Shown here: positions 4,803 to 64,000 of the stretch, piece after piece
How positions within the stretch are numbered: the stretch's first letter is position 1
How the letters are laid out: each line of letters starts with the position of its first letter
The notes under the pieces: model-generated
The model's input: only the letters and a program-made list of their open reading frames with translations
What the model was told of the DNA's origin: nothing
Database searches by the model: none
Source: Bryobacterales bacterium
GTDB lineage: Bacteria; Acidobacteriota; Terriglobia; Bryobacterales; Bryobacteraceae
Direction of reading: 5' to 3'
Length of the DNA stretch: 64,000 nucleotides
Assembly: GCA_038215275.1 (NCBI GenBank)
Contig: JBBQRA010000003.1
Coordinates: forward strand, 355-64,354
Program-made: the position numbers and the translations under genes

Positions 4803-5957
4803 ATGACACGGTTCCGCTACATTTTTCTGGCGTTGGCCTTCGTCGGCGCGTTCTTCTACCTCACCACCATCGCAAAGTCCCGGTTCTTCCCTCCCGTGGG
4901 ATCGCCGTCGGCGGCGGCAGATGGGCCGGCCTGGCAGGAAGCAAAGGCGGTGCAGGGCGCTGGCCTTGGCATCGACGAGCAGAACAACATCGACGTGTAC
5001 AAACGCTCCCGCGCGGCGACCGTTAATATTTCAAGCACCGTCTACCGGCGTGCGAACTTTTTCGAAGTGGTCCCGGCTAGAGAGACCGGCTCCGGTTTCA
5101 TTTTCGATGCGAGCGGCTTGATCCTCACCAACAACCACGTGCTGGCCGGCAACTCCAAAGTTGTCGTCACGCTTCCCGACCAATCCAAATACGACGCCGA
5201 GGTTCTGTACAAGGACCCGAATAATGATCTTGGGCTGATCAAGATCGTTCCCCGGAAGAAACTGCCAGTGCTTACGCTCGGCGATTCGGACGTCATTCAG
5301 GTCGGCCAGAAGGTACTGGCCATCGGCAATCCGTTTGGCCTGAACGGCACGTTGACCACGGGCATCATCTCCGCGGTCGGCCGAAACATCCGCGCCGACG
5401 ACAACCGGGAACTCGAAGGGATGATGCAGACGGACGCGGCTATCAATCCCGGCAACTCCGGCGGGCCGCTCCTCGATTCGCAGGGCAACGTAATCGGCAT
5501 TAATACGGCGATCTATGGGCCTGGGGGCAACATCGGGATCGGTTTTGCGATGCCGATCAACAAGGCGAAGGTGATGATCAGCGACCATCGCGCTGGGCGG
5601 AGCTATAAGCGGCCGCGACTGGGCGTTGAAGTGATCTATGTGACCGGCGAATGGGCCGAGGCACTCGATCTGCCTGCGGAAGGCGGCCTGTTGCTGCAGG
5701 GAGTGCAGCGGGGCAGCGCGGCCGATCGTGCGGGTCTGCGGGGTCCGCGGCAGATCGTAATCGTGGGTAATGCCGAGGTGGGCATTGGCGGCGATCTCAT
5801 CATGGCCATCGATAACATGCCCTCTGACAGGCCTGATGCGATCACCCGGGCGTTGGCCAAGAGGCGCGCTGGCGATACCATCGAACTCACGATTGCGCGG
5901 CAAAAGAAGATTTCCAAGTTGAAAGTGCAACTCGGCGAAGCGCCGGACGACCTCTAA
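4803..5957 (+). CDS. HtrA/DegP-family serine protease with C-terminal PDZ domain
   Basis: Catalytic motifs TNNHV, DLGLIKI and GNSGGPLLD. PDZ-like tail (GLLLQGVQRGSAADRAGL). N-terminal TM/signal anchor. ATG at 4803 chosen (the ORF track starts at 4767). Confidence 0.88.
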   Translation: MTRFRYIFLALAFVGAFFYLTTIAKSRFFPPVGSPSAAADGPAWQEAKAVQGAGLGIDEQNNIDVYKRSRAATVNISSTVYRRANFFEVVPARETGSGFIFDASGLILTNNHVLAGNSKVVVTLPDQSKYDAEVLYKDPNNDLGLIKIVPRKKLPVLTLGDSDVIQVGQKVLAIGNPFGLNGTLTTGIISAVGRNIRADDNRELEGMMQTDAAINPGNSGGPLLDSQGNVIGINTAIYGPGGNIGIGFAMPINKAKVMISDHRAGRSYKRPRLGVEVIYVTGEWAEALDLPAEGGLLLQGVQRGSAADRAGLRGPRQIVIVGNAEVGIGGDLIMAIDNMPSDRPDAITRALAKRRAGDTIELTIARQKKISKLKVQLGEAPDDL

Positions 5958-6590
5958 TCAGCGAGAGAAACGTACCAGGAGCGCGGCGCCTTTTTCCGGC
6001 GCCGCGCCTATTTCATTCATCATTACGGGGCGGATTTCGTCTCCGGCCAGCCAGGCCGCTTCGGTCGCCCCTGTCAGGGCTTCGGGGCCTGGGTTTCCGG
6101 CTTGAAAGATCTTCACGGAGACTTTCTTGCGTTCGAGCGTCAGGTCGTCCACCTGACGGGCGACCGCCCAGAGGCCGTCGGCGCGGCGGATTCGCAGTTG
6201 GAGCTTGATGCCGCGTTGGGGTTGGTCGGGGACCCATTGGGTGTTCCATTCGGAGGCGATCCGATGCCAGCCGGAACCGAGGCGTTCAAAGTGGGCCCAA
6301 AGTTCGCCTTCGGCGTCGGTTTTGAAGCGGATGACCGGGTCGTCCTTGATGGTCCCGCCGCTGCGGGGGGAGACTATTTGTCCTCTGGGGCCTTCGACGG
6401 ACGCACCGAAGTAGACTCGCACTGGCCCCTCCACTTTCTTGCCGCGGAGCAGGGCCAGGGAGACTTCGCCCGCTGCGTTTTCCGCTCGGATGGCGCCGGC
6501 TAGTTGTTCGGGGGGCATGGTCTTTGCGTCCGGGACTTCGCGGTAAACGTCGCCGGGGCCGAGGGCCCAGAGCAGGAGGAGCCACTTCAT
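5958..6590 (-). CDS. hypothetical secreted protein
   Basis: 210-aa ORF with a hydrophobic N-terminus (MKWLLLLWALGPG). No recognised motifs. Coding-like composition, fills the gap between flanking genes. Confidence 0.45.
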   Translation of the reverse strand: MKWLLLLWALGPGDVYREVPDAKTMPPEQLAGAIRAENAAGEVSLALLRGKKVEGPVRVYFGASVEGPRGQIVSPRSGGTIKDDPVIRFKTDAEGELWAHFERLGSGWHRIASEWNTQWVPDQPQRGIKLQLRIRRADGLWAVARQVDDLTLERKKVSVKIFQAGNPGPEALTGATEAAWLAGDEIRPVMMNEIGAAPEKGAALLVRFSR

Positions 6591-26818: not shown

Positions 26819-26834
26819 AGAGGAATTGTCGTTT

Positions 26835-26863: not shown

Positions 26864-26889
26864 GGATTCGGGAAGGAATAGAGCGGAAT

Positions 26890-27168: not shown

Positions 27169-27172
27169 GACA

Positions 27173-27208: not shown

Positions 27209-27222
27209 CGGTTTCAAGTTTT

Positions 27223-27495: not shown

Positions 27496-27708
27496 GCTCC
27501 TGATGGTGTCCCAGAGGGGATGTACCTTTGTAAAGGATATTCCGCAGTTTCGGTACGGCGCGAGGGTGGACTACCCTTATGTTTGATGCGGGGCGGATTC
27601 CCCCCGTTCGCGATAATTAAGGATAGTACTTATGGATCTTCGCCCCGATTTCGTCAATCGGTAGTGGTCGACAAACGGATATACCCACATGGTGAGCACT
27701 CTTTGCCA

Positions 27709-28818
27709 CTAGGACTTCTGGTACCGCCGGAAAAAGTCCCAACTCTTTCTCGCGCATTCCCCCCACTGGAAGTGATCGCGCGCTCTTTGTTGGCCCGCCG
27801 CCCCGACCTGGGACCGCAATTCGGCCGAGTCCAGCAGGCGGCGAAGACCGTCGGCAATCTCCGAGACACTTCGGGGATCGACGTGGATTGCCCCCTCTCC
27901 GGTGATCTCCGGCAGGCATGAGGTGTTGGAAGTCAGGACCGGGACTCCGCACGCCATGGACTGCGCGACGGGGAAGCCAAACCCTTCATACAAAGAGGGA
28001 TACGCGAAAACCGCGGCGGCTTTAGTTAGAGCCGGCAGGTCCCGCTCGGCAACGTAGCCCAGGTAGCGGACGCCGGGCATCCCCGTTTCGATCCGGCGGG
28101 CCGTAGCGCCGGCGGCCCAGCCCATCGGACCGGCCAGAACCAATTCGAAGTCTTCGCGACGCAGTTGTGCCCAGGCGTCGAGAAGCGTATCGAGGTTCTT
28201 GCGCGGCTCGACGGTGCCTAAATTGAGGACGAAAGGCTTGGTGAGGCCCAGACGGGCCCGGACAGCATCGGCATCGGGTGCGGAGGCCCGGAAGAACCGG
28301 TCGTCGACACCGGAATGGATGGTGACTACCTTTTCCGGATGGAGGCCAAGGATGCGAATGGCGTCCTGGCGAGTGTTTTCGCTGACAGCGATGAGGCCGT
28401 CGGCCTTGGCGGCGATCTGGGCGGCGAAGCGTTTATCGGCTTCGACATTGGCCGGGGTGTGGAGTTCCGGCATGAGCCAGCAGGTGAGGTCGTGGAGGGT
28501 GGTCGTCAGGGCCATGCCGGGGACGGGATGGTGGACCTGATTGGTGGCGTGGAAGACGTCGGCCCGATGGTTGGCGAGGCGCATGAGCCAGCCGGGGCCG
28601 TAGTTGGAGCCGAGGAGGAAGGCGATGCGGGGGACAGTTTGCCAAGGGCTGAGAGTGGACTGTTCGTGGTTGAGGTTGCCAATCTGGTCGAGGAAGGGGA
28701 AGGGAGAGACCCGATGACCGGCGCCGGTTTGGCGGAGCGCGACGATCCAGTGGTAGAGGTAGTTTTTTACGCCGGCGCTGCGGAGGAGGAGCGGGGAGGC
28801 GTCGACGGCCAGGTGCAT
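27709..28818 (-). CDS. glycosyltransferase family 4 (GT-B, GT1/GT4 type)
   Basis: C-terminal domain with EGFGFPVAQSMACGVPVLTSN (E-x7-E region). N-terminal GT4-like domain. Confidence 0.85.
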   Translation of the reverse strand: MHLAVDASPLLLRSAGVKNYLYHWIVALRQTGAGHRVSPFPFLDQIGNLNHEQSTLSPWQTVPRIAFLLGSNYGPGWLMRLANHRADVFHATNQVHHPVPGMALTTTLHDLTCWLMPELHTPANVEADKRFAAQIAAKADGLIAVSENTRQDAIRILGLHPEKVVTIHSGVDDRFFRASAPDADAVRARLGLTKPFVLNLGTVEPRKNLDTLLDAWAQLRREDFELVLAGPMGWAAGATARRIETGMPGVRYLGYVAERDLPALTKAAAVFAYPSLYEGFGFPVAQSMACGVPVLTSNTSCLPEITGEGAIHVDPRSVSEIADGLRRLLDSAELRSQVGAAGQQRARDHFQWGECARKSWDFFRRYQKS

Positions 28819-50425: not shown

Positions 50426-50469
50426 GAACAAGACTATATCTAATTCTGTATCCGCTATCATCAACAGTC

Positions 50470-51573
50470 ATGCGCCTTGCTGCCCTTTGCCTGCTCACCC
50501 CCTCCCTGTTTGCCCAATCGCCGCTTACCCATACTGACGTTTTCCGGGCCGGCGTCGGTGGCTATCACTCCTATCGCATTCCCGCCCTCCTCACCGCCGC
50601 TAACGGCCATCTGCTGGCCTTCGCAGAGGCCCGCCGTGACAACCGGGGCGACCCCGGCCTCGGCGATATCGACTTAGTTGTTGCCCGGTCCACCGATCAG
50701 GGCCGCACTTGGACAAAGCCCGAGCTGCTCGACGACCCCGGCGAAAAATGGTCAGCCTCCAACCCCACGCCGCTACTGGACCGATCGAACGGCCGCCTCT
50801 GGATCTTCTTCAATCGCTGGCAACCCGGCTACGGAACTGAGAAGTCGCAACCCGGCCAGCCCCATAACCAGATGTGGGCCCGCACCAGTGATGACCACGG
50901 ACTCACCTGGTCCGCTCCCCGCGACCTCACCCGCGACAGCCGCGAATACGACCACTGGGGCGCCATGTTCCTGGGCCCCGGCGGGGCCATTCAAACCAAG
51001 TCCGGTCGAATGTTAATCCCGGCCTCGATGAAGGCCGACCTCTTCACTGCCCAAGCCACCGTCGGCGGCTTCACGGGCTCTATGGGCCTTATGCGCGCCT
51101 ATATCCTGGCCAGCGACGACCACGGCCAATCCTGGAAGCGCGGCGCCCTCGTCCCCGCCCTAACCAATGAAAACCAATTGGTCGAACTGGCCAACGGCAA
51201 CGTCCTGATGGACGCCCGCCAGAACAACGGCGACCACCGCTGGTTCCTCACCTCCCCGGACGGCGGTCAATCCTGGCTGCGCCCGCGCCGCGGCCTCACC
51301 GTCACCGCCGTCGCCACCGCCATCGAACGGCTCGGCAACCGCCTTCTCTGGACCGGCCCTACCATGAACAACCGCCAGAACCTCGTCGTCCGCTCGAGCT
51401 ACGACGAAGGGCAAACCTGGATCCAGGAACGCGTCATCTACGGCGGTTTCGCAGCATACTCTGACCTCGCCGTGCTCTCCGATGGCGCCGCCGGCGTCCT
51501 CTGGGAACGCGGTTCGACCGAGCCCTATCAGGCCATCACGTTCACGCGCCTTCCCCCGGCGTTCCTGGAATAA
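50470..51573 (+). CDS. exo-alpha-sialidase (GH33, BNR repeats)
   Basis: YRIPAL (RIP motif). Asp boxes STDQGRTW, SDDHGLTW, SDDHGQSW, SPDGGQSW and SYDEGQTW. Confidence 0.87.
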   Translation: MRLAALCLLTPSLFAQSPLTHTDVFRAGVGGYHSYRIPALLTAANGHLLAFAEARRDNRGDPGLGDIDLVVARSTDQGRTWTKPELLDDPGEKWSASNPTPLLDRSNGRLWIFFNRWQPGYGTEKSQPGQPHNQMWARTSDDHGLTWSAPRDLTRDSREYDHWGAMFLGPGGAIQTKSGRMLIPASMKADLFTAQATVGGFTGSMGLMRAYILASDDHGQSWKRGALVPALTNENQLVELANGNVLMDARQNNGDHRWFLTSPDGGQSWLRPRRGLTVTAVATAIERLGNRLLWTGPTMNNRQNLVVRSSYDEGQTWIQERVIYGGFAAYSDLAVLSDGAAGVLWERGSTEPYQAITFTRLPPAFLE

Positions 51574-51711
51574 CGAACTCGGCTACGGCTTTCCTCCAAT
51601 TAGGTGCTCCTGCAAAATCCGCTCCAGCACCAAGCTCTGCGGTACCGAAACCAGAATCGAAGCAAAAATCAATGTGGACCGATTTGGTCGTCTTGTGTTA
51701 CGCTCAATTCC

Positions 51712-54087
51712 ATGAATGCAAATGTGTTGCAACTGCCTCTTTTGGCGTTAGCCGTTGCCCCCATCATCGCGGCTCAGTCCGCTGCTTTCCCGGTCCGTGG
51801 CGTCGTGCAGGATGCCTCACGCTCCGCCATCGCCGGTGCCCAGATAAGGGCCATGACGGGCCTGAAAGGCCAAGAAACGACGATTCTATCCGATCCCCAA
51901 GGCCGTTTCGAATTATCGCTCGCTGCCGGCAGCTACCGCCTTCTCACCTCCGCCGCAGGCTTCTCCGCCACCGAACAGGCCCTCACAGTTGCGGACAAGC
52001 CGTTGCAAGTCGGTATCACTCTCACCATCGCGCCCTTGGCTGAAACGATCCGGGTCTCCGGCGGCCGCGTCCTCTCCTCTGGTGCCGACTTGCAACGCCT
52101 TCCCGGCGCTGCCGACATTCTCACAGCGGAAGTCCTCCGCGAAAGCAATGTCATGACCACGGAAGAGGCTCTGCGGAAAGTCTCCGGAGTCCATGCCCGC
52201 GGTGAGGACGCTTTCGGTCTTCGCCCCAATATCGGCATCCGTGGTCTCTCCCCCACTCGCTCTACCAAAGTCCTCCTGCTTGAAGATGGTATCCCGCTGT
52301 CCTATGCGCCATACGGCGACAACGCTTCTTACTACCATCCCCCCGTTGATCGCTTCGAAACCATCGAAGTCATGAAGGGCGGAGAGCAGATCGTATTCGG
52401 CCCCATGACCGTTGGCGGCGTCATCAACTACGTCACCCCGGCTATCCCAGCCAAGCGCGGCGGCTCCCTGATGCTGATGGGCGGCAATCGCAACTATCTC
52501 AATGGACACGCCAAATACGGGGCAAATTTCAAAAACACGGGTTGGCTGATTGACCTCCTTCGCAAACAGGGCGAAGGCTCCCGGGACAACGTCCGCCATG
52601 GCATCACCGACTTCAACGTAAAGACCCTGACCAGCGTCTCCTCCCGCCAAACTATCGGCCTCCGCTTCAACTCCTACGCCGAGGATTCCAACATCTCCTA
52701 CTCCGGGCTCCGCGAAAGCGAATTCCTCGCCAACCCGCGCGGCAACGTCTTCCGCAACGACTTCTTCAACACCAATCGCTACGCCGGCGCCGTTACCCAT
52801 ACGCTGGCCCTGTCCGACCACCTCGTACTCTCCACCAACGGCTACGCTTCTGCCTTCCTCCGGGACTGGTGGCGCCAATCCAGCAGCTCCAGCCAGCGCC
52901 CCAATGACTCCGCCGACCCCGCCTGCGGCGGCATGGCCAATCTCCTCACCACTTGCGGAAACGAAGGCCGCCTCCGCTACTATCAGACTTGGGGCGTCGA
53001 CCCCAAGTTGAAATATACTTTCAAGTTCGGCAACGCGCAGAACGAATTCGACCTCGGCTTCCGCTACCACTCCGAGATTCAGGAACGCTACCAGAAGAAC
53101 GGCCCGCTGCCCACTTCCCGCGATGGCGTCGTCGCGGAAAACAACGACCGCCGAGCCCAGGCCGCTTCCTTCTTTCTGCAAAACCGTTTCGTCTTTGGCA
53201 ATCTGGCCATCACCCCCGGCCTCCGCTTCGAGTCCGTGAATTTCCGGCGCGTCAACCATCTCAACGGGGCTCGCGGGGATACCCGCCTCACGCAATGGAT
53301 CCCCGGCATCGGCGCCGCCTACACCGTGGGCAGCCGCCTCACCTTCTTCTCCGGCCTCCACCGCGGGTTTGCCCCGCCTCGCGTCGAAGACATCATCAAC
53401 AACAACACCGGCGCATCCGTCGATCTCGATGCCGAGTTGAGCTGGAACTATGAAGCCGGCGCCCGCGTCAACCTACCCGGCGATCTCCGGGCCGAAGCTA
53501 CCTTCTTCCGGATGGACTTCGAGAATCAGATCGTTCCCGCCAGCGTCGCCGGCGGCCTAGGCGCCACACTCACCAACGCCGGGTCCACGCTCCACCAAGG
53601 CGCCGAATTTTCCACCGCTTGGCAACTCGCCCGCTTCCTCCCCCGTCAGCATAACGTCACGCTCCGCACCGCTTGGACCGCGCTGCCCATCGCCCGCTAC
53701 TCCTCGGATCGCTTCAGCAGCATTCCTGGCTTCACCACCGCCCGGATCACCGGCAACCGGCTCCCCTACGCACCCAAGAGCCTGCTGACGTCCAGCCTCA
53801 GCTACACCCACGCCAAGGGAGTTAACGTGTTCGTCGAGAACGTCTATACGGGCAGCCAGTTCGGCGATGACCTTAACACCATCGGAGGCACGCCGGACGG
53901 CCAGCGCGGTCTGCTGCCCGGCAACGCCATATGGAACGCCTCGGTTAACGTGCCCGTCACAACCAGCACCACGCTCTTCTTCACCATGAAGAACGTCACC
54001 GACCGCCTCACCGTCGTCGACCGCAGCCGCGGCCTGCTCCCTGGCATTCCGCGGCTCGTTCAGTTCGGTTTCCGGTTCAATTTTTAG
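51712..54087 (+). CDS. TonB-dependent receptor with N-terminal carboxypeptidase-regulatory-like domain
   Basis: Signal peptide. VRGVVQDASRSAIAGAQIR is CarbopepD_reg-like. Plug domain (EEALRKVSGVHA..., IEVMKGG). C-terminal beta-barrel ends ...FGFRFNF. Confidence 0.85.
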   Translation: MNANVLQLPLLALAVAPIIAAQSAAFPVRGVVQDASRSAIAGAQIRAMTGLKGQETTILSDPQGRFELSLAAGSYRLLTSAAGFSATEQALTVADKPLQVGITLTIAPLAETIRVSGGRVLSSGADLQRLPGAADILTAEVLRESNVMTTEEALRKVSGVHARGEDAFGLRPNIGIRGLSPTRSTKVLLLEDGIPLSYAPYGDNASYYHPPVDRFETIEVMKGGEQIVFGPMTVGGVINYVTPAIPAKRGGSLMLMGGNRNYLNGHAKYGANFKNTGWLIDLLRKQGEGSRDNVRHGITDFNVKTLTSVSSRQTIGLRFNSYAEDSNISYSGLRESEFLANPRGNVFRNDFFNTNRYAGAVTHTLALSDHLVLSTNGYASAFLRDWWRQSSSSSQRPNDSADPACGGMANLLTTCGNEGRLRYYQTWGVDPKLKYTFKFGNAQNEFDLGFRYHSEIQERYQKNGPLPTSRDGVVAENNDRRAQAASFFLQNRFVFGNLAITPGLRFESVNFRRVNHLNGARGDTRLTQWIPGIGAAYTVGSRLTFFSGLHRGFAPPRVEDIINNNTGASVDLDAELSWNYEAGARVNLPGDLRAEATFFRMDFENQIVPASVAGGLGATLTNAGSTLHQGAEFSTAWQLARFLPRQHNVTLRTAWTALPIARYSSDRFSSIPGFTTARITGNRLPYAPKSLLTSSLSYTHAKGVNVFVENVYTGSQFGDDLNTIGGTPDGQRGLLPGNAIWNASVNVPVTTSTTLFFTMKNVTDRLTVVDRSRGLLPGIPRLVQFGFRFNF

Positions 54088-54897
54088 CTACTGCTTGTCC
54101 ACCGGCAGCTCCGGCTTCGCGCTCCACTCTTCAAACGAGCCGTCGTACAACTTCACATCGCGGCCGGCTAACCGGGCAGCGAAGTACGGCACGGTGGCCT
54201 GCATCCCGATGTGGCAGTAGGTCACCAGTGTCTTTCCCTCGCCCAGTTTCTCGCCCAACGCGTTCACGGGCTGAAAGGCTTTCGACTCCGTCAGTAAAGT
54301 CGGAAACGGAATGCTCTTCGCCCCCGGTATGTGCCCCGCACGCGGCATCACCCCGGCGTTCGCACCCGAATAAAACTCCGGCAACCGCGCATCCACCATC
54401 GTCACCGACTCGTCCCGCAAGTGGGCATTCACCCACGCCGAGTCCACAATCAGTTCCGGCCGCGGCTTCACCGTCAACGCCCTCGCCGCCACCACCGCCG
54501 GAGCCTCCGTCGTCAACGGCAGCCCCTTAGCTTTCCAAGCCACCAAGCCCCCATCCAGCAGCATCGCCGGCAGGCTGTGATACTCAAACGTGAACCAGAT
54601 CCGCGTCGCCGTCTGCACCGATTCGTTCCCCGCGTAGATCACCACGCGCGTCCCGTCCCCAATGCCCCACTGCATCATCCGCTCCCGCATCAACTCCGGC
54701 GGCGGCATCTCCAGCCGCAGCTTCGAATCCGGCTTCGAAACATCGGCCAGCGTCACGAGGCGCGCCCCCGCAATGTGACCCTCAGCATAATCCTTCGCCG
54801 AACCGGCGTGCAGGATGACAACATCTTTCTCGGCAGACAACCACTCCGGAGTAACCAGCAAATTCACGGCAGCAACCATCATCGGCATCACAAGCAT
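54088..54897 (-). CDS. tandem-rhodanese sulfurtransferase (SseA/thiosulfate-mercaptopyruvate type)
   Basis: Two rhodanese modules (LVTPEWL..., GHIAGA..., GHIPGAKSIPF). Active-site loop YCHIGMQA. ATG at 54897 chosen to avoid overlap (the track starts at 54936). Confidence 0.8.
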   Translation of the reverse strand: MLVMPMMVAAVNLLVTPEWLSAEKDVVILHAGSAKDYAEGHIAGARLVTLADVSKPDSKLRLEMPPPELMRERMMQWGIGDGTRVVIYAGNESVQTATRIWFTFEYHSLPAMLLDGGLVAWKAKGLPLTTEAPAVVAARALTVKPRPELIVDSAWVNAHLRDESVTMVDARLPEFYSGANAGVMPRAGHIPGAKSIPFPTLLTESKAFQPVNALGEKLGEGKTLVTYCHIGMQATVPYFAARLAGRDVKLYDGSFEEWSAKPELPVDKQ

Positions 54898-54899
54898 AC

Positions 54900-57278
54900 C
54901 TACAGTGTCCGCGAACGCGGATACGGCGTGTTCCACCCCTTCACCGCATGCCAGATGATGCGGTCCAGCACGTCAGCCGGCGCCTCGTCCGGCTCGCTGA
55001 AGTCCATTCGCAGCGAAGCCTCGGCCCCCTTGCGCTCCGCCCCGCGCAGCGCCCGAAGCGGCGGGTTCATCTCATCGAGCGGCACCCGATTTTTCTCTGC
55101 CACGTACGGCGCCAAGTCCGCTTTTTCCGTGAACACACTGAACATCGGCTCCGCCGCCAAGTCGAACTGGTTCTGCGGCGGCAACCCCAGCAGATGCTGA
55201 ATCGTCCGGTACATGTGGATCGTCGTGTAGAACGTCGAATCCACCGCCTTCCGCTTCACCCACGGGCCAATCACCATCCCAATCGTCCGGTGCCCATCCA
55301 CATGGTCCAGGCCGCTCTGCGCATCGTCCTCCGTCACGAAGATCACCGAGTCCTTCCAGTACTTGCTCTTCGAGATCGCCTCCACCAACCGCCCCAACGC
55401 CAGGTCGTTGTCCGCCACCATCGCCCGCGGCGTAGGGAACCCCGGCGAGGTGCCGCTCGTATGGTCCTGCGGCAGCAGAATCACATTCAACCGCGGCAGA
55501 TCGTCGTTCTTCTCATACGCCCTAAACTCCTCCAGGAAACGGTCCACCCGCACCTGATCCGGCACCGTCAATCCGTACGCCGGCACGTTCGGCGAATAGA
55601 CATCGCGCAAACCCACAATCTGCGCCCGCGGCGCAATCTTCACCTTGCTGGTTCCGTTCTTCCAGTCCGCGTAGATATCGCTCCATGTCGCCTTCGCCGG
55701 CGTGATGGTATTCAGACCGCGCTCCCCGTAGCTCCGCACGCTTACGCCATGAACCTTCGCCGCGTCCCAAAGAAAATCGTTCGGCGCAAACAGCATCGGG
55801 TTTTGATCGTTCCGCCCATTCCCATACTTGTGTACCCAGTCGCTCGCGTAGCCCTGCGTGCACCACCGGTGCCCCAATGCCGACTGGTCCGCCGGCGTGT
55901 AGAAGTTGTCCAGCAGCACGTACTCCTCCGCCAACTTGTGATGGTTCGGCGTCACGTCACGCCCAAAGTGCACCAGCTTCGGATCGCCATTGCCCTGCGG
56001 CAAATCGCCGAAAATCTGGTCATACGTTCGGTTCTCTTTGATCACATAAAAGACATGCTTCACCGGCGCAATCTTCCCCTTCTTCCCCCGCTGCAACTCG
56101 CCCGAGTCGTTCGCCCGCACCGCCTTCGTCCACTCCGCCAACTGCTTCGCCGACGGCTGCGGAATCACGCTGATCAACCCCTTCCGGTTCTTGTACGTCG
56201 GCGGCAGCGAGCCCATCCCATACCCGCTCGCCACTACAATTTCCCGCTCATCCGCCGATAGCGCCACCGCCGTCGGGTACCACCCCGTCGGCACAAACCC
56301 CCGCGTCTTCCCGCTGCCCGTATCGATCACGGCCACGGCATTGTCTGCGCCATTGGCCACATATAACGTCTTCCCGTGCCGGCTCACCGCCAGCGCATTC
56401 GGCGCGCTGCCCACCGGCGCCTTCGGCGTAATCCGCGCCGGAATCGTCTGCACCACGCGGTCCCCTTCCGTATCAATCACCGACACTGAATCGCTATTCG
56501 CATTCGCCACGTAAAGCCGTGTCCCGCGCAGCGCCAGCGCGCTCGGATGCAGCCCCGTCTCAATCTCCTTCACCACCTTCCGCCCCGCCACATCCACCAC
56601 TGACACCGTCCCCGACTTCGCGATCCCCGTCCGCGGATCCACTACCACCGGGAACACTCCGTCCGTCATATCTCCCGTCCCCGGCCGCCGCCCGCCCCAG
56701 TTCGACACATAGGCCTTCCCCCCGCTCACCGCCACCGTGTACGGATAGCTCCCCACCGCCACCGTCTCAACGCTCTTCTTCCCCAAGTCCACAATCGCCA
56801 ACGCATGCTTCTGGTTCAACGCCACCAGAACCGTCTCTCCCATCACCGCCAATCCGCTCGGCGCCCCGTCCATTTTGATCGTCCCATCCGCCACGAACCC
56901 CGCCCCCGTCCGCCGGAACAACTTCAACTCTTGATCCTGCCCCCCGCCCACGAACAGCCGCTCCCCATCCGCCGAAAACGCTACCCCCACAAAGCTATCG
57001 CCCAGCGCAATGGTCTGTTCCACCTTCCGGCCGGCCATATCGAGCAAATGCAGAGCCCGCGGAGCAAAGTTCGACCCCGTCACTACCGCCATCCGCTTCC
57101 CGTCAGGGCTCAGCGTGATTCCCAGCGGCCGGTCGTTCACCTCCAGCGGCACGCCCGCCGGCGCCACCCATTGTCCTGTCGGCAGCAGCGTCCGCCCATC
57201 GGACTGCTTGCCCACTTTCAACGTCCACACCGCCGCGCCCAACAGCGCCAAGCCACACAGTCCAACCAGTATCCGCAT
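54900..57278 (-). CDS. YncE-like beta-propeller fused to phosphoesterase (phospholipase C / AcpA family) domain
   Basis: N-terminal YVTN-type repeats (LYVANANSDSVSVIDT, LYVANGADNAVAVIDT). C-terminal HVFYVIKENRTYDQIFGDL and ...DHVDGHRT. Signal peptide at MRILVGLCGLALLGA. Confidence 0.8.
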   Translation of the reverse strand: MRILVGLCGLALLGAAVWTLKVGKQSDGRTLLPTGQWVAPAGVPLEVNDRPLGITLSPDGKRMAVVTGSNFAPRALHLLDMAGRKVEQTIALGDSFVGVAFSADGERLFVGGGQDQELKLFRRTGAGFVADGTIKMDGAPSGLAVMGETVLVALNQKHALAIVDLGKKSVETVAVGSYPYTVAVSGGKAYVSNWGGRRPGTGDMTDGVFPVVVDPRTGIAKSGTVSVVDVAGRKVVKEIETGLHPSALALRGTRLYVANANSDSVSVIDTEGDRVVQTIPARITPKAPVGSAPNALAVSRHGKTLYVANGADNAVAVIDTGSGKTRGFVPTGWYPTAVALSADEREIVVASGYGMGSLPPTYKNRKGLISVIPQPSAKQLAEWTKAVRANDSGELQRGKKGKIAPVKHVFYVIKENRTYDQIFGDLPQGNGDPKLVHFGRDVTPNHHKLAEEYVLLDNFYTPADQSALGHRWCTQGYASDWVHKYGNGRNDQNPMLFAPNDFLWDAAKVHGVSVRSYGERGLNTITPAKATWSDIYADWKNGTSKVKIAPRAQIVGLRDVYSPNVPAYGLTVPDQVRVDRFLEEFRAYEKNDDLPRLNVILLPQDHTSGTSPGFPTPRAMVADNDLALGRLVEAISKSKYWKDSVIFVTEDDAQSGLDHVDGHRTIGMVIGPWVKRKAVDSTFYTTIHMYRTIQHLLGLPPQNQFDLAAEPMFSVFTEKADLAPYVAEKNRVPLDEMNPPLRALRGAERKGAEASLRMDFSEPDEAPADVLDRIIWHAVKGWNTPYPRSRTL

Positions 57279-57399
57279 CGCCCGGCAGCGTAGCACAATT
57301 GGGCACGTCCCAGGCAGCAATCCTTTTACCAACTGCTACCCTAACGAATGTGCAGATGGATGTACTCAAATACATGTGTGACCAACACCAGACCCAGTC

Positions 57400-58710
57400 A
57401 TGCGGATAGACAGCCTCGAACTTATCAACTTCCGTGGATTCGAGAACAAGTCGCTCACACTCCATCCGAATTTCACGCTCTTCATTGGTGATAATGGCTC
57501 TGGCAAGACAAGCGTCCTGGATGGCCTGGCCGTCGCTGCCGCCATCTGGTTGGTTGATCCCCCCGACTCCAAGCTTGCTGGCAGCCGCAGAGAAATCTTA
57601 GTCTCGGAGATCCGTCTCGAAGCAGAGGCCCGTGGAGATCGGCTCCAGTTTCGTGAGAAAAGACCGGTACTCATCAAGGCATCGGGCTGTATCGGAGAAC
57701 ACAGCGATATCTCATGGACGCGACAAATTAGAGTGGACGGACGACGCACCACGAATGCTGAGGCCAAAGCGGCTCTGAGCATCATTAGAGATATCTATCG
57801 CCGCGACGACGCCGGTGAAGACGTGCTTTGTCCGGTGCTAGCCTACTATGGGGCCGGACGCGCATGGCTCCCATCGAACCTCCAGAAGGCAAAACACGCA
57901 ATGCGCGGACCCTCCCGCCGGTGGTCGGCATTCTACGACTGCTTCAATGAGCGCATTCGATTCGGTGAATTGCACTCATGGTTCCGAAAGGAGACGATCG
58001 AACGAGGTAATTTGGGTGGACAATGGCGCAATGGCTATGGAGCCGTGGCCCGCGCAGTCCTAATGTGCTTGCCCGGTGCTGACTCGATTTTCTTCGATGC
58101 AGATCGAGACGAAATCGTCGTTGAAGTCAAGGGCAATCGACAGCCATTCAGCAACCTAAGCGCCGGGCAGCGGATGATGGCCGCGCTAGTTGCTGATCTC
58201 GCTATCAAGACCGTGACGCAGAATGCGTTCCTAATTCCCACAGAGGGGCCGCTCGCCGCTGACGCCCTACCTCGGGTGTTGGCGGAAACACCTGGGCTAG
58301 TTCTTATCGACGAACTGGACGTCCATCTTCACCCCGCTTGGCAACGCCACATCGTCGCCGACCTGCGCTCGACATTCCCGTCCATCCAGTTCGTCTGTAC
58401 TTCTCATTCCCCTCAGATTATTGGAGAGATTCCGAGTGAGCAAATTCGTGTTCTGCACGATGGCGAAGTCTCGGCCCCATCAGCCTCATTCGGACTCGAC
58501 TCCAACCGCGTTCTGGAGGAGATCATGGAAGCGCCCTCCCGTAATGAGTCTACCCGGATTTCGTTGCGCGACACCTTCGACCTCATCGAAATGGGCCAGT
58601 TCGAAGAAGCCAGGGGAAAACTTGAAAAGCTGACTGAGCAGCTTGGACCAGCCGAACCCGAGATCAACAGAGCGAAGGCACTGATGGCGTTTTTGGAGAC
58701 GGAGGTGTGA
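57400..58710 (+). CDS. ptuA: ABC/SMC-like AAA ATPase, Septu PtuA-like
   Basis: MRIDSLELINFRGF...FIGDNGSGKTSVLDG (Walker A), LSAGQRM (signature-like), LVLIDELDVHLHP (Walker B/D-loop), CTSHSPQ (H-loop). Visibly lower GC than the flanks. Confidence 0.8.
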   Translation: MRIDSLELINFRGFENKSLTLHPNFTLFIGDNGSGKTSVLDGLAVAAAIWLVDPPDSKLAGSRREILVSEIRLEAEARGDRLQFREKRPVLIKASGCIGEHSDISWTRQIRVDGRRTTNAEAKAALSIIRDIYRRDDAGEDVLCPVLAYYGAGRAWLPSNLQKAKHAMRGPSRRWSAFYDCFNERIRFGELHSWFRKETIERGNLGGQWRNGYGAVARAVLMCLPGADSIFFDADRDEIVVEVKGNRQPFSNLSAGQRMMAALVADLAIKTVTQNAFLIPTEGPLAADALPRVLAETPGLVLIDELDVHLHPAWQRHIVADLRSTFPSIQFVCTSHSPQIIGEIPSEQIRVLHDGEVSAPSASFGLDSNRVLEEIMEAPSRNESTRISLRDTFDLIEMGQFEEARGKLEKLTEQLGPAEPEINRAKALMAFLETEV

Positions 58711-59345
58711 AAAGTATCGCCAAAGGACCAGTGCCGCCGGAGCTGATCGCCCATCAAAAGAGCACCAACCCGACTTACGAGAACTTCCGCCACCGAGATC
58801 GACTTCGGAATGCGCTTGTGGCGGAGCAACGAGGTCTGTGCTGCTATTGCCAATCTCGGATTCGCGCGACTGCGGACCACATGAAAATCGAGCATTGGCA
58901 TTCACAAAGTCGCTATGCTGGGGAGGCGCTCGACTACCAAAATCTACTTGGGGCCTGCCGAGGAAACGAAGGACAACCGAAGAGCCTACAGCATTGCGAT
59001 ACCAGCAAAGGCGACTCCGTTTTGTCCCGAAATCCGGCGAATCCCGCGGACAACGTCGAAACGCATGTCGTTTACCTTGGCGACGGACGTATTTCTTCAC
59101 GGGATACGCAATTTCAGAACGAATTGGAAGCGGTGCTCAACCTGAACACGCCTCGGCTCGTGAACAACAGAAAAGCCACGCTTGACGCATTCACCCAAGC
59201 TATCCCCCTCACGGGTAAGCTTACCCGCCCCAAGCTCGAAAAATGGATGGCGCGATGGTCCGGCGAGGAGTCCGCTGGGGACATCGAGCCTTTCAGTGGA
59301 GTGGTGACGTTCTGGCTTCAGAAGAAACTTCAAAAAAAGCTGTAG
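58707..59345 (+). CDS. ptuB: TIGR02646-type HNH nuclease, Septu PtuB-like
   Basis: CCYCQSRI...DHMKIEHWHSQS...YQNLLGAC...HCDTSKGD pattern of the TIGR02646 HNH family. GTG start in a GTGA overlap with the ptuA stop. Confidence 0.78.
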   Translation: MKSIAKGPVPPELIAHQKSTNPTYENFRHRDRLRNALVAEQRGLCCYCQSRIRATADHMKIEHWHSQSRYAGEALDYQNLLGACRGNEGQPKSLQHCDTSKGDSVLSRNPANPADNVETHVVYLGDGRISSRDTQFQNELEAVLNLNTPRLVNNRKATLDAFTQAIPLTGKLTRPKLEKWMARWSGEESAGDIEPFSGVVTFWLQKKLQKKL

Positions 59346-59363
59346 CGTATTCCGCGGCTTAAT

Positions 59364-59411
59364 TTTTCGCTTGTCGAATGGCTCTCTTACTCGTCCGGGC
59401 GCAAGCGAAAA
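59364..59411 (+). other. 10-bp inverted repeat 19 nt downstream of ptuB (hairpin; terminator or RNA element)
   Basis: TTTTCGCTTG (59364-59373) and CAAGCGAAAA (59402-59411) are perfect complements with a 28-nt spacer. No U-tract after the 3' arm. Confidence 0.4.
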
Positions 59412-59744
59412 GCAGGTTATAGGCCCCCTCTCCGATTCATCTTGCGCCTCGCTTCTGCCTTGCGCATCCGTCGTCAAGGTCACCTCCGCTCCGGAAGACC
59501 AACCCACTTATTGATCCGGTGTCCTGACGAACGACTTCAACTCTCCTGCCGGCGACCCCTCGCCGCCAACTACAGCTCGGCCCTTGGGACCAACCAACTC
59601 AACACGCCTCCGCCCAGCGACTTCACAGGCTCCGAAGCAGAAAACCACAGCGACTACTTAGTCGACCTTCGATCCCCGGAACCCACCCGTTTCTATCTGC
59701 GGCTTCGCTCTCGTCGTTCTCGGATCGGCCCGCCGCCGAAAGTG

Positions 59745-61067
59745 CTAGTCGGCCCGGCGGAACCGGTCCCCCGTCTGCTGGCTCCACTCCGCCAACATCC
59801 GCCGGTGGCGCGCCAGTTCTGCCGACGCCTCGGGCCGTCGCGCGAGGTTCACCACCTCCCCCGGATCCTGCTCCAAATCGAACAACTGCTCCGCACGCTC
59901 CCCGCTCCGAAACACGACGTACTTAAATCGCCCACTCCGCACCATTCTTCCGTCCCGGCTCGCATCCTGGTAACGCAGTTCACTCACTACGTACTCCCGC
60001 CCCGCATCCTTCCGCAGACTCGCCCCTCGCATCTCCGCCGGCGCCGCCACCCCGGCGTAATCACAGAACGTGGGCAGAATATCCAGCAACGAAACCAAAC
60101 GGTCCGTCACGCCCTGCCCCACCCCCGGCCCCGCCATCATCATCGGCACATGCACACTCTCTTCGTAGAACGCCGCCTTCTGCGCCCACCGGTGCCCGCC
60201 CTGCCCTTCCCCGTGGTCGCTCGCAAACAGCACCACCGTCTTCCGGTCCAGCCCTGTCTCCTCTAACGCCTTCAACACCGCGCCGATATAGCCATCCACC
60301 GCCTCCACCATCCGGTAGTAATCGTGCAGATATTGCCGTACATCATCCCGCCGCCACTCCGCCGCCACCCTGATGCCCTGCGACATCAAGTCATACCCCT
60401 CCCGCCGGTGGTACTGCATGCACTCCGGCTCCTCCGGGTCCGCGGCCATGTTGCCCGGCGCAGGCGGATAGCGCGAAACGTCCACATGGTTCCGCGTCCC
60501 CGGATGCTGCCGAATCCAGTCGCAAATATCATGCGGATTCATAAACGAAGCCACCATCAGAAAGGGCTCCTTGGCCGCCGGTCCCCGCAACCACTTCGCG
60601 CACTCCCGCGCCACCGGCGCATCCATATCCCGGCCCAGCGCGCTCCCTCCCACCAGCTTTTCGAATCCCGTCATCCCATCGAACGACTTCGGCAGATGCC
60701 ACTTCCCCGCGTAAACCGTCTTGTACCCCGCGCCGGAAAACACCTCACCCATCGTCGGCATCCCCGCGACAATCGGCCGCCCGTTCACCTCCACCCCCGT
60801 CTCATTCGGCATCCGCCCCGTGAAGATGCTCGACCGCGACGGCGAGCACACCGGATACGTGCAGTACGCCTCGGTGAACGTCGTCCCCCGCGCCGCCAGC
60901 CGGTCCATCGCCGGGGTCTTCAAGTACGGATTCCCACACCCGGACCATGCCGTGTGCCCCTGCTGATCCGTCAGAATCAGCAACAGATTCGGCCGCTCCA
61001 CCGCCGCCCACACCGGCGCCGCCATCATCCCGCTCACCATCGCCCGTCGACTCATCATCGACGCCAT
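59745..61067 (-). CDS. sulfatase (formylglycine-dependent, arylsulfatase family)
   Basis: PNLLLILTDQQ, CTYPVCSPSRSSIFTGR (C-x-P-x-R), ...SDHGE. Confidence 0.87.
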   Translation of the reverse strand: MASMMSRRAMVSGMMAAPVWAAVERPNLLLILTDQQGHTAWSGCGNPYLKTPAMDRLAARGTTFTEAYCTYPVCSPSRSSIFTGRMPNETGVEVNGRPIVAGMPTMGEVFSGAGYKTVYAGKWHLPKSFDGMTGFEKLVGGSALGRDMDAPVARECAKWLRGPAAKEPFLMVASFMNPHDICDWIRQHPGTRNHVDVSRYPPAPGNMAADPEEPECMQYHRREGYDLMSQGIRVAAEWRRDDVRQYLHDYYRMVEAVDGYIGAVLKALEETGLDRKTVVLFASDHGEGQGGHRWAQKAAFYEESVHVPMMMAGPGVGQGVTDRLVSLLDILPTFCDYAGVAAPAEMRGASLRKDAGREYVVSELRYQDASRDGRMVRSGRFKYVVFRSGERAEQLFDLEQDPGEVVNLARRPEASAELARHRRMLAEWSQQTGDRFRRAD

Positions 61068-61082
61068 AATACAGCGCCCGGC

Positions 61083-62054
61083 CTACGCACTATAAAAATT
61101 CTTCGCCCACGCGTGCCGCGCCAATCGCTTCATCACCTCCGCCGGCAACGGCCCCCGCTCGCTCGCCGCGATATTCGCCTCCACGTTCTTCACCTGCCGC
61201 ATCCCCGGTATCACCGACGACACCTCCGGATGCGAAAGCACCCACTGCAAAGCAATCTCCGCCAAGCTCCCGGACACTCCTTCCACATCCGCCCGCAGCG
61301 CCGTCACCCGCTCCACCACCTGCCGCTTCCGGTCGCCCGCAAAATACATCTCCCGGAACTCACCCGGCGCAAACACCGTCTCCTCCGTAATCGCCCCCGT
61401 CAGCGCCCCCTCATCCAACGGACACCGCGCCAACACGCCAATCTCATGCTTCGCACACAGCGGAAACAACTCGATTGCCGGCGTCGGGTCAAAAATGTTG
61501 AAGATCACCTGCACCGCATCAATCATTCCCGTCTCAATCAATGACAACGCCGACCCCGGCTGATGGTCATTGATCGAAATCCCAAAATGCTTCACCTTCC
61601 CCGAACTCTTCAGCGTCTCAATCCCCCGCCGCCAATCCTCCGCCGCGAGCCACTCCGGATTCCATACATGAAACTGCTGCAGGTCGATCTGCTCCACACC
61701 CAGATTCCGCAGCGACTCCTCCGTCGACTCGACGATAAACGCCAACGGAAACACTTCCTCGATCGCCACCCCCGGTTGCGCCGGCCACACCCGGTTCTTC
61801 GGAGGAATCTTCGTCGCAATCGTCACCGCATGCCCCGCCCCCCGCGCGGCCTCTCCCACCAACTTCTCCGAATGGCCTTCGTTGTAAGCCAGCGCCGTGT
61901 CGATAAAATTCAACCCCAGCTCAAACGCCCGCCGCAGCGCCGCCAGCGATTGCGTGTCGTCCCCGCCGATCCATTGGCGGCCCCCAATCCCCCAGGCTCC
62001 ATACCCAATCTCACTCACCGCAATCTGCGTTCTGCCCAATTTTCGAAAGCGCAT
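61083..62054 (-). CDS. aldo/keto reductase
   Basis: MRFRKLGRT...SEIGYGAWGIGG, FIDTALAYNEGHSE, ...VIPGMRQV. Confidence 0.87.
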   Translation of the reverse strand: MRFRKLGRTQIAVSEIGYGAWGIGGRQWIGGDDTQSLAALRRAFELGLNFIDTALAYNEGHSEKLVGEAARGAGHAVTIATKIPPKNRVWPAQPGVAIEEVFPLAFIVESTEESLRNLGVEQIDLQQFHVWNPEWLAAEDWRRGIETLKSSGKVKHFGISINDHQPGSALSLIETGMIDAVQVIFNIFDPTPAIELFPLCAKHEIGVLARCPLDEGALTGAITEETVFAPGEFREMYFAGDRKRQVVERVTALRADVEGVSGSLAEIALQWVLSHPEVSSVIPGMRQVKNVEANIAASERGPLPAEVMKRLARHAWAKNFYSA

Positions 62055-62083
62055 TAGACCTTCAGTTTAGAATAGGGAGGCTC

Positions 62084-62536
62084 ATGGATACGCTCCTCGA
62101 CCCTCAGATCCTCGCCGCCACCTGCCGCCGTCTCGAAGGCCTCACGCCGGACACCAAAACCCTCTGGGGCCGCATGTCCGCTCACCAGATGGTGTGCCAT
62201 CTCAACGACAGCTTCCTCCTCGCCATGGCAGAAAAGACGGCCTCGCCCGCCACCAACTTTTTCCAGCGCACCGTCATCAAGTGGCTCGCCCTCCGCCTCC
62301 AGCGGCCCTGGCCCCACAACATCCCCACCCGCCCCGAAATGGACCAGGCCCTCCGCGGCACCCCCCTCACCGGCTTCACCGACGACCGCAGCCGCCTCAG
62401 CAGCCTCCTTCACCGCTTCGCCCAACCCGCGCCCGCCTTCGGCGTCCACCCCATCTTCGGCCCCATGACCTCCTGGGAGTGGCGCCGCTGGGGATACCTC
62501 CACGCCGACCATCACCTCCGCCAATTCGGACTCTAA
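62084..62536 (+). CDS. DUF1569 (DinB-superfamily-like) protein
   Basis: 150 aa. ...WGRMSAHQMVCHLNDS... and C-terminal WRRWGYLHADHHLRQFGL fit DUF1569. Confidence 0.65.
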   Translation: MDTLLDPQILAATCRRLEGLTPDTKTLWGRMSAHQMVCHLNDSFLLAMAEKTASPATNFFQRTVIKWLALRLQRPWPHNIPTRPEMDQALRGTPLTGFTDDRSRLSSLLHRFAQPAPAFGVHPIFGPMTSWEWRRWGYLHADHHLRQFGL

Positions 62537-63942
62537 TGCAACGTCGCCACTTCCTCTCTCTCGTCGCCGGCTCCGCCCTCGCGCAGCCCTCTTTCACGCC
62601 GCCCAACATCGTCCTCATCCTCGCCGACGATCTCGGCTGGGCCGACCTCGGCTGCTACGGCGCCGACCTCCATGAAACGCCCCGCATCGATCGCATCTCC
62701 CGCCAATCTCTGCGTTTCTCGAACGCCCTCTCCCCCGCGCCCGTCTGCTCCCCCACGCGCGCCGCCCTCCTCACCGGTAAGCACCCCGCCCGCCTCGGCA
62801 TCACCATCTGGCACGAGGGCGCCGTCAACCCGCCCACCAATCGCGCCCTCCTCCCCGCAGCCTCCGAAGCCAGTCTCCCCCACTCGGAAACCACCCTCGC
62901 CGAAGTCCTCCAGCAAGCCGGCTACTCCACGGCTTTGGTCGGCAAATGGCATCTCGGCGACGCCGCGCACCACCCCGAAACCCAAGGCTTCGAAGTCAAC
63001 ATCGGCGGCACCCACTGGGGAGCCCCCGCGACGTACTTCTATCCCTACAGCGGGCCCTTCGGCACTCAGAAGGAGTTGCGCTACGTTCCCAGCCTCGCCC
63101 CCGGAGTTGAAGGCGAATACCTCACCGACCGCCTCACCACGGAATCCCTCCGCGTCATCGACGCCTTCGCTGCCCGCCAAAAACCGTTCTTCCTCTATCT
63201 CGCCCACCACGCCCCCCACACTCCCATCGAAGCCAAGCCCGCCCTCGTCGCCAAGTACGAAGCCAAAATCCCCAAAGGCGTCAACCACACCAACGCCGCC
63301 TACGCCGCCATGGTCGAGTCCTTCGATCAAAGCGTCGGCCGTGTCCTCGACCATCTCCGCATCCGCGGCCTCGACCGCAACACCATCTTCATCATCACCT
63401 CTGACAACGGCGGCTTCCTCCACAGCGGTAACGGCCCCCGCATCACCACCAACGTCCCCCTCCGTTCCGGCAAGGGCTCGCTGTATGAGGGAGGCATCCG
63501 CGTCCCCCTCATCATCAACTGGCCCGGCGTCACTCCCGTCGGCGCCGTCTCCGCCGAACCCGTCGTCCTCACCGACCTCTTCCCTACCCTCTGCGCCGCC
63601 GCCAAGGCCCCTCTTCCCGCCGGAGCCACCGACGGGCTCGACCTGCTCCCTGTCCTGCGCAACCCCGCCGCCCGCCTCCCTCGCGAAGCAATTCATTTTC
63701 ACTACCCGCACTACTACCCCACCACTACCCCCGTCTCCGCCCTCCGCACCCGCGATTGGAAGCTCCTCGAATACTTCGAAGACAACCACGTCGAACTCTA
63801 CAACCTCGCTCAGGACCCGAGCGAGAAGTCCGACCTCGCCGAAAAGAACCCCGCCAAGGCCAAAGCCCTCCGCGACCAACTCCACGCCTGGCGCCAATCC
63901 GTCGGTGCCCGTCTCCCCACACCGAACCCGAAAAAGGAATAG
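62536..63942 (+). CDS. sulfatase (formylglycine-dependent)
   Basis: Tat/signal-like MQRRHFLSLVAGSAL, PNIVLILADDLGW, VCSPTRAALLTGK, TSDNGG. Start shares one base with the upstream stop (TAATG). The ORF-track N-terminal extension is Pro/Arg-rich and not protein-like. Confidence 0.87.
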   Translation: MQRRHFLSLVAGSALAQPSFTPPNIVLILADDLGWADLGCYGADLHETPRIDRISRQSLRFSNALSPAPVCSPTRAALLTGKHPARLGITIWHEGAVNPPTNRALLPAASEASLPHSETTLAEVLQQAGYSTALVGKWHLGDAAHHPETQGFEVNIGGTHWGAPATYFYPYSGPFGTQKELRYVPSLAPGVEGEYLTDRLTTESLRVIDAFAARQKPFFLYLAHHAPHTPIEAKPALVAKYEAKIPKGVNHTNAAYAAMVESFDQSVGRVLDHLRIRGLDRNTIFIITSDNGGFLHSGNGPRITTNVPLRSGKGSLYEGGIRVPLIINWPGVTPVGAVSAEPVVLTDLFPTLCAAAKAPLPAGATDGLDLLPVLRNPAARLPREAIHFHYPHYYPTTTPVSALRTRDWKLLEYFEDNHVELYNLAQDPSEKSDLAEKNPAKAKALRDQLHAWRQSVGARLPTPNPKKE

Positions 63943-63948
63943 TCTCCC

Positions 63949-64000
63949 ATGCGCCTCGCCCTCCTCCTGCTCCTGACGTTCCCTCTGGCCGCCCAGCCGC
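63949..64000 (+). CDS. start of a secreted protein (partial, runs off the right edge)
   Basis: ATG at 63949 followed by MRLALLLLLTFPLAAQP, a signal-peptide-like sequence. Only 17 codons are visible. Confidence 0.3.
   Translation, partial: MRLALLLLLTFPLAAQP

Follow-up and report, generated by a model that had tools for sequence, protein, structure and literature searches.

In the nearest characterised Septu systems, those of Escherichia coli (structures 8EE4, 8EE7, and 8EEA) and Septu Ec-B88 (PMC13096335), anti-phage defence is encoded by two genes: ptuA, which comes first and specifies an ATP-binding cassette (ABC) ATPase, and ptuB, which specifies an HNH nuclease of the TIGR02646 family. 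For the E. coli system, the account of Li et al. 2024 given in PMC12640716 reports a 6:2 PtuA:PtuB complex, DNA cleavage, and inhibition by ATP. PtuA's C-terminal extension clamps the C-terminal helical domain of PtuB, and the stand-alone E. coli PtuA carries a Leu in its signature motif and has no ATPase activity (PMC12819146). Stand-alone Septu protects against phages experimentally, with both enzymatic activities needed, and E. coli Septu Ec-B88 works by abortive infection (PMC13096335). A homologous PtuA/PtuB effector pair is found in type I-A retrons (Retron-Eco7/Ec78 and Retron-Eco4/Ec83; at times referred to as type II Septu), in which PtuA has an N-terminal extension and a helical flap; PtuA's C-terminal extension and PtuB's C-terminal domain are conserved in retron and stand-alone systems alike (PMC12819146). 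Here we describe a ptuAB pair in a 64,000-nucleotide (nt) stretch of a Bryobacterales bacterium (contig JBBQRA010000003.1, positions 355 to 64,354), referred to below as the window. Very probably the pair constitutes a type I Septu system of the stand-alone kind, acting against phages and located on an accessory chromosomal cassette of ~2.45 kb in a Bryobacterales/'Candidatus (Ca.) Sulfopaludibacter'-like acidobacterium.

The two genes are adjacent and co-oriented. Gene ptuA (57400..58710, + strand) is an open reading frame (ORF) of 436 amino acids (aa), and ptuB (58707..59345, + strand) is an ORF of 212 aa with a GTG start. Because bases 58707-58710 read GTGA, the GTG start of ptuB overlaps the TGA stop of ptuA by 4 nt, and the genes are translationally coupled. 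A previous reading of these letters, made without database searches (the sequence-only reading), had reported both ORFs and the GTGA overlap, had listed eight motifs in the two proteins, and had proposed the pair to be Septu. The coordinates, the lengths, the overlapping bases, and all eight motifs were verified, and the proposed identity is now supported by PADLOC, by TIGR02646, by AAA_15 and AAA_21, and by the nearest chains in the PDB.

In PtuA, the motifs GDNGSGKTS (beginning at residue 30), LSAGQRM (253), LVLIDELDVHLHP (300), and TSHSPQ (334) supply the Walker A (G30-T37), signature (L253-Q257), Walker B/D-loop (D304-E305), and H-loop (H336) sites. Hidden Markov model searches, which the sequence-only reading had named as a check, gave a full-length match to the PADLOC PtuA1 model PDLC00277 (E=9e-113, residues 1-431 of 436), and more than 20 further PADLOC PtuA models also match. 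In Pfam, AAA_21 (67.9 bits) and AAA_15 (67.5 bits), both at ~2e-18, score above their cut-offs, and SMC_N and AAA_23 match as well. The best relative in the PDB is E. coli Septu PtuA 8ee4 (phmmer E=1.3e-37, 133 bits, over residues 1-195 and 243-427), which outranks every retron PtuA chain (542-552 aa). G30, N32, G33, G35, K36, T37, L253, S254, A255, G256, D304, E305, and H336 are invariant in 27 homologues, and Q257 is kept in at least 90% of homologues. PtuA is thus predicted to be a Septu ABC-type (AAA_15/AAA_21, SMC/Rad50-like) ATPase with intact catalytic motifs. The sequence-only reading had considered this PtuA oddly compact. That impression does not hold up, as hundreds of homologues are 434-439 aa long and the matching PADLOC models have 421-443 positions; 436 aa is the normal PtuA size in this subfamily.

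PtuB carries the motifs CCYCQ (residue 45), DHMKIEHWH (57), NLLGAC (79), and HCDTSKGD (96). The PADLOC PtuB1 model PDLC00322 matches the protein nearly end to end (E=3e-67, residues 1-210 of 212), and its score for the NCBIfam model TIGR02646, 71.7 bits, exceeds the cut-off (52.15); the profile results are unambiguous for both proteins, although no Pfam family is significant for PtuB. Its best relative in the PDB is E. coli Septu PtuB 8ee7_C (phmmer E=1e-5). Because this match is weak, an alignment of 29 PtuB sequences (A1) and a structure prediction were made. When the AlphaFold2 (AF2) model was compared with the PDB by Foldseek, the top match was E. coli Septu PtuB 8eea_G (probability 1.00, template modelling [TM] score 0.61, 18% identity), the second was the PtuB of retron Ec78, and nothing beyond these two was significant. 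C45, C46, C48, H63, N79, C84, and C97 are invariant in the alignment; C45/C46/C48, C84, and C97 are putative Zn ligands, and H63 and N79 are the HNH residues. Taken with the profile matches, this pattern identifies PtuB, at the level of prediction, as a Septu HNH nuclease of the TIGR02646 family.

The public annotation of ptuB deserves a comment. The record for the window apparently calls a protein of 154 aa (P0122, on the same NCBI contig, of 64,763 nt) that begins at the internal Met of MKIEHWH, with loss of the invariant CCYC motif. Likewise, in the closest relative of this locus (L001, described below) the ENA call is shortened to 155 aa, while the Logan call for its identical counterpart L002 is full length at 213 aa. 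The 28 homologues in the alignment, of 206-228 aa, span the first 58 residues and back the GTG start at 58707. The public call is likely a mis-annotation, 58 residues too short (missing 58707-58880).

How typical the pair is was judged from protein searches of metagenomes and metagenome-assembled genomes (MAGs), with PtuA relatives counted at E<=1e-10. PtuA has more than 2000 relatives; the top 120 are nearly all 434-439 aa long and 58-63% identical, and include several from Bryobacterales/Bryobacteraceae MAGs as well as a single Pirellulaceae sequence, also from a MAG. For PtuB the count is 648; the usual length is 211 aa, and many records bear the name 'TIGR02646 family' or 'retron system putative HNH endonuclease'. 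Many of the PtuA and PtuB relatives at 50-63% identity come from Bryobacterales, Pirellulaceae, and Verrucomicrobiota MAGs. Apart from the window's own record, the nearest relatives are those of L001, at 84% (PtuA) and 76% (PtuB) identity. Three homologous loci from unrelated contexts, at ~60% identity, were inspected (L022, L024, and L025): in each, a PtuB-sized ORF comes after PtuA and overlaps it by 4 nt, in the same adjacent, co-oriented arrangement as in the window and in L001/L002, and the genes around the pair are housekeeping genes, with neither a reverse transcriptase nor an integrase nor any other recognised defence gene. In its end-to-end profile match, its 4-nt overlap, and its solitary context, the window's pair shows no substantive difference from the PADLOC septu type I models and their homologues. 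To judge by these comparisons, it is an ordinary member of the known, very large type I Septu family and not a new system. As a separate observation on L022 (a Bryobacteraceae MAG), the rho gene just upstream of PtuAB, at 4560-7818, is split among three gene calls (the first Rho_N/Rho_RNA_bind/ATP-synt_ab, the other two ATP-synt_ab), and a DUF3800 gene separates the last two; either an insertion into rho or an artefact of assembly or annotation could explain this.

Compared with the E. coli systems, including Septu Ec-B88, the locus has the same two genes in the same order and of the same ATPase and HNH families. It shares with E. coli Septu the lack of a reverse transcriptase; PtuA can be aligned over both lobes and the PtuB-binding C-terminal extension, and the fold of PtuB finds its best match there. 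The differences are a low sequence identity (18% in the structural alignment of PtuB), the host, here an uncultured acidobacterium (soil/lake), and, in PtuA, a length of 436 aa against 465 aa in E. coli and a canonical ABC signature, LSAGQR, against LSDGLR in 8ee4. Since the window's PtuA keeps LSAGQ while the ATPase-inactive E. coli PtuA has Leu, ATP hydrolysis, beyond binding, may be part of the switch in this protein; the subfamily with the signature Gln may hydrolyse ATP.

By analogy with the E. coli systems, a working mechanism can be outlined. PtuA would oligomerise (6:2 with PtuB in E. coli) and hold PtuB by its helical C-terminal extension. Nucleotide-bound PtuA, through K36, D304/E305, Q257, and H336, would keep PtuB, with its H63, N79, and Cys ligands, silent. 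Infection would lift this restraint, and PtuB, released or activated, would cut DNA or tRNA; the cuts known from elsewhere are nicks in plasmid or genomic DNA in one E. coli system and a cut in the tRNA-Tyr variable loop in another. Such cutting would halt phage replication at the expense of host growth, i.e., by abortive infection.

For the chromosomal setting of the pair, a phosphoesterase-based scan with one genome per species gave 19 loci from Bryobacterales-type Acidobacteriota, among them L004. In the window, ptuAB lies between a phosphoesterase gene (54900..57278; beta-propeller plus PF04185, the Pfam families being read from the context table of L001) and a sulfatase gene (59745..61067), both on the minus strand, as the sequence-only reading had them. 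In two relatives, L003 and L004 (the latter 'Ca. Sulfopaludibacter sp. SbA3', with a phosphoesterase 97% identical to the window's), a conserved string of co-directional genes runs aldo-keto reductase, sulfatase, phosphoesterase, rhodanese. Their phosphoesterase orthologues (94-97% aa identity) directly follow the sulfatase, and the sulfatase stop is separated from the phosphoesterase ATG by 33 nt with no cassette. Homology of the window to these empty sites stops at 57296/57297 and resumes at ~59752, and the window therefore bears an insertion of ~2.45 kb (~57297-59751) in the opposite orientation to the genes around it. The same cassette occupies the same junction, with a left boundary identical to the nucleotide, in L001/L002, a pair of mutually identical metagenome contigs. 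The junction comparison that the sequence-only reading had proposed thus finds the cassette in L001/L002 and not in L003 or L004, and the empty sites support its suggestion of horizontal acquisition.

Composition points the same way. GC content is 0.54-0.58 over 57250-59500 against 0.62-0.67 in the flanks, and no 2-kb stretch in the whole window is poorer in GC than those that begin at 57200-57700. At third codon positions the GC content (GC3) is 0.62 for ptuA and for ptuB, whereas 52 other gene-sized ORFs have a mean of 0.76 (standard deviation 0.046, minimum 0.64), giving z = -3.05. The hand counts of G+C on which the sequence-only reading had based its composition drop were exact (29/60 at 57400-57459 and 33/60 at 58741-58800, against 38/60 at 57001-57060), and the windowed GC and GC3 values establish that the drop is real and not a sampling effect. 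In both carriers, the window and L001, cassette GC3 is 0.59-0.62 against 0.77-0.83 in the flanks; the cassette is compositionally foreign in both. Neither clade-wide presence at this junction nor host-like composition, which the same reading had held would speak against acquisition, was found: there is one carrier relative, the cassette is absent from the near-conspecific of that relative, and composition is atypical in both carriers. An extra compositional mark of the insert is GC skew on the + strand, which runs from -0.16 to -0.46 on either side of the cassette (50000-64000), regardless of gene strand, and is ~0 only inside 57250-59250.

The age of the insertion can be approached through the two carriers. 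The flanking genes of the window and L001 are 87.2% identical, while those of L001, with the cassette, and L004, without it, are 95.1% identical. Between the window and L001, the rate of synonymous substitution (dS) of ptuA is 0.67 and its ratio of nonsynonymous to synonymous rates (dN/dS) is 0.129; dN/dS of ptuB is 0.114. The flanks have dS of 0.47-0.66 and dN/dS of 0.04-0.09. The ptuA dS resembles that of the flanks, which indicates that the cassette diverged in step with them. Neither gene is disrupted, and purifying selection acts on both, if a little less strictly than on core genes. On this reckoning the acquisition is not recent and predates the divergence of two lineages whose flanking DNA is now 87% identical. 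L004 and the more distant L003 have homologous empty spacers, so that both alleles appear old. The history may have involved a single old insertion and then loss or replacement of the allele, or the cassette may have passed between lineages by recombination through the flanks.

No vehicle for the cassette came to light. Terminal direct and inverted repeats sought at its ends gave short, chance-level matches, none of them at 57297 or ~59751, and the window has no tRNA that could serve as an integration site. Searches with PtuA by tblastn returned 113 plasmid records, all at <=33% identity, and 7 phage records at <=38% identity, with full-length matches at <=30%; neither set holds a close relative. 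The sole recombinase in the window (17894-18793, + strand) is a 299-aa tyrosine recombinase with a Phage_integrase match at E=1e-48 and an N-terminal SAM-like domain; its size and architecture are XerC/XerD-like, and nothing points to a link with the cassette, which is 40 kb away. The junction is otherwise variable among the relatives, being occupied by a PEP-CTERM gene in L014 and, in L009 and L021, by a gene for a repeat protein in addition to a PEP-CTERM gene. The repeat-protein gene (L021 8082-9929; L009 8521-9930) lies beside the PEP-CTERM gene and upstream of a phosphoesterase 85% identical to the window's, and encodes a protein of 469-615 aa with long NTGATATS-type tandem repeats in variable copy number.

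The cassette brings its own upstream region (57297..57399, + strand), 5' of ptuA. Together with 18 nt of ancestral spacer (57279-57296), this forms a 121-nt divergent intergenic region (57279-57399) that faces the phosphoesterase start and is presumably where the ptuAB promoter lies. Because the cassette splits a gene pair that is co-directional and 33 nt apart in the relatives, transcription of the phosphoesterase-rhodanese genes in the window must now start from this same region. An 18-nt block at ~57333-57350 (CTGCTACCCTAACGAATG) is kept in L001, while the rest of the spacer has diverged. The spacer at the phosphoesterase start has a 10/14 inverted match to the conserved block (57333-57346), too short to tell from chance. 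Elsewhere in the window, the second GC-poorest stretch (26648-27709, ~0.57) holds no long ORF; it has a 56-aa ORF directly after the gene for a 689-aa membrane protein, and a 92-aa ORF on the minus strand that by eye may resemble the C-terminal winged-helix domain of OmpR-type regulators.

Downstream of ptuB, 399 nt (59346-59744) hold no intact gene. The sequence-only reading had singled out this 400-nt tail as noncoding, which is correct as far as intact genes go, but the tail is not featureless: it contains a decayed PEP-CTERM gene (59437..59748, + strand). In L014 the same junction is filled by an intact gene for a 259-aa PEP-CTERM-anchored protein (6119..5343, on the strand equivalent to + in the window). 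Four pieces of that protein (aa 11-48, 55-67, 205-222, and 236-258) are matched by tblastn, colinear and on the + strand, in window positions 59437-59742, with frameshifts, an in-frame stop, and a deletion of residues ~68-204. At its end the relic reads ...CGFALVVLGSARRRKC*, with a stop that overlaps that of the sulfatase gene; L001 holds a shorter relic, ...GFVVLGLALMRKR*. These colinear, decayed pieces indicate that the tail is the pseudogene of an unrelated neighbour, outside the defence module. The tail folds no better than shuffled sequences (z = -0.59) and has no Rfam match. A retron-type noncoding RNA (ncRNA) in the tail was considered and dropped, given that z value and a pseudogene that accounts for the tail. 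A 10-bp perfect hairpin at 59364-59411 was rejected as a terminator or ncRNA (z = 0.21 against shuffles, no following U-run, not kept in L001).

Three other explanations of the locus were weighed. The pair could be a selfish, addiction- or toxin-like cassette, kept because its loss is costly, in which case an anti-phage effect would be incidental or absent and the patchy distribution would reflect selfish spread. In its favour, expression of retron-associated PtuAB on its own is toxic to E. coli (PMC12640716), no defence genes adjoin the cassette, and its presence/absence pattern crosses lineages. Against this, the phage protection demonstrated for stand-alone Septu depends on both enzymatic activities (PMC13096335), the close relative L004 does without the cassette and shows no visible scar beyond the junction, and the cassette has no mobility functions; we regard this explanation as very unlikely. 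Even less credence goes to the idea that the genes belong to another ABC-ATPase-plus-nuclease system sharing only the P-loop (OLD/Gabija-, PARIS AriA-, MADS MAD3-, or AbiEii-like), or to a housekeeping repair pair (RecF/SbcC/Rad50-like) with no immune role. Weak matches of the expected kind do exist, to mad3 (E=1.7e-23) and AriA (4e-20) in PADLOC and to RecF, Rad50, SbcC, and SMC in NCBIfam/Pfam, and some homologue records are named 'DNA replication and repair protein RecF'. However, where the matched stretch is reported, the AriA, RecF, Rad50, SbcC, SMC, and MAD3 matches extend no further than the initial ~40-50 residues that hold Walker A, except that the PADLOC mad3 match spans residues 2-117, and all NCBIfam matches to these families are far under their cut-offs, whereas the PtuA models align over 431/436 residues. 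Moreover, the partner is a TIGR02646 HNH protein and not a Toprim, DUF4435, or helicase protein, and the genes are accessory and compositionally foreign, unlike core repair genes.

The least probable of the three, and in our view largely refuted, is that the pair is the orphaned effector of a type I-A (Ec78/Ec83-like) retron that has lost its reverse transcriptase and ncRNA, which would leave PtuAB an unrestrained or dead toxin. The nearest named NCBIfam models are the equivalogs for retron Ec78 PtuA (E=8.8e-64) and PtuB (1.7e-29), the PADLOC models ATPase_I-A and HNH_I-A also match, and ~400 nt with no intact gene follow ptuB. The equivalog scores are nevertheless far under cut-off, at 216 against 500 bits for PtuA (NF041760) and 103 against 150 for PtuB, and only the C-terminal positions 305-519 of the 524 in NF041760 are matched. 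At 436 aa the window's PtuA aligns end to end with stand-alone PtuA models and is too short for the N-terminal extension and helical flap described in PMC12819146, retron PtuA chains in the PDB having 542-552 aa. No Rfam family was found at E<=1 in 54000-62000 or at gathering thresholds in the whole window, although divergent retron ncRNAs could escape Rfam, and a crude scan of all six frames of the window gave no PQG...SP / YxDD motif pair of the reverse transcriptase kind. Both neighbours of ptuAB are syntenic metabolic genes with orthologues in the same order in relatives, leaving no adjacent reverse transcriptase gene; the tail, a PEP-CTERM pseudogene, shows no RNA structure in excess of shuffled sequence; L022, L024, and L025 are likewise two-gene cassettes free of reverse transcriptase; and dN/dS of ~0.12 speaks against a dead module. 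Unlike type I-A retrons, then, the window has no reverse transcriptase and no msr/msd RNA that could be found, its PtuA is shorter, and its scores are below the equivalog cut-offs. The sequence-only reading was right that the window holds no reverse transcriptase, but wrong to treat this as an oddity, since absence of that enzyme is a defining trait of stand-alone Septu.

The assignment to stand-alone type I Septu has weaknesses of its own. Identity to studied proteins is low (PtuB 18% to 8eea_G, with phmmer reaching only E=1e-5), and the PtuB model has a mean predicted local distance difference test (pLDDT) score of only 75, weakest in the HNH core (residues 60-100). Given this low identity to experimentally studied PtuA and PtuB, the trigger, substrate, and stoichiometry outlined above for the window's system are extrapolations. 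No promoter was identified (a sigma-70 scan gave 0 sites), and no terminator either, terminator-like sites being no commoner than in shuffled sequence. No mobility gene or terminal repeat accounts for the arrival of the cassette. Finally, the occupied and empty alleles both look old, and either gain or loss may have produced the present pattern.

Beyond the identity of the system, a broader proposal joins its history to its biochemistry. The cassette would be an old cross-species presence/absence polymorphism at a fixed site in a former operon of 'Ca. Sulfopaludibacter'-like Acidobacteriota, devoid of mobility genes and exchanged by homologous recombination through the flanking core genes, and its Gln-signature PtuA would use ATP hydrolysis as a switch, unlike the hydrolysis-dead PtuA of E. 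coli. We offer this combination as speculative and, taken whole, rather unlikely.

The locus adds little to what is known of Septu, and only two of its aspects are mildly interesting: an old presence/absence polymorphism for which the empty sites give clean evidence, and a signature motif in its canonical form. It does provide a clean, nucleotide-resolved case of a minimal defence cassette in an uncultured acidobacterial chromosome. Its presence and absence between near-conspecifics, with neither integrase nor repeats, should be useful for studies of defence-gene turnover in soil and freshwater Acidobacteriota. The canonical Gln marks a large subfamily of Septu with which it could be decided whether Septu regulation requires ATP hydrolysis.

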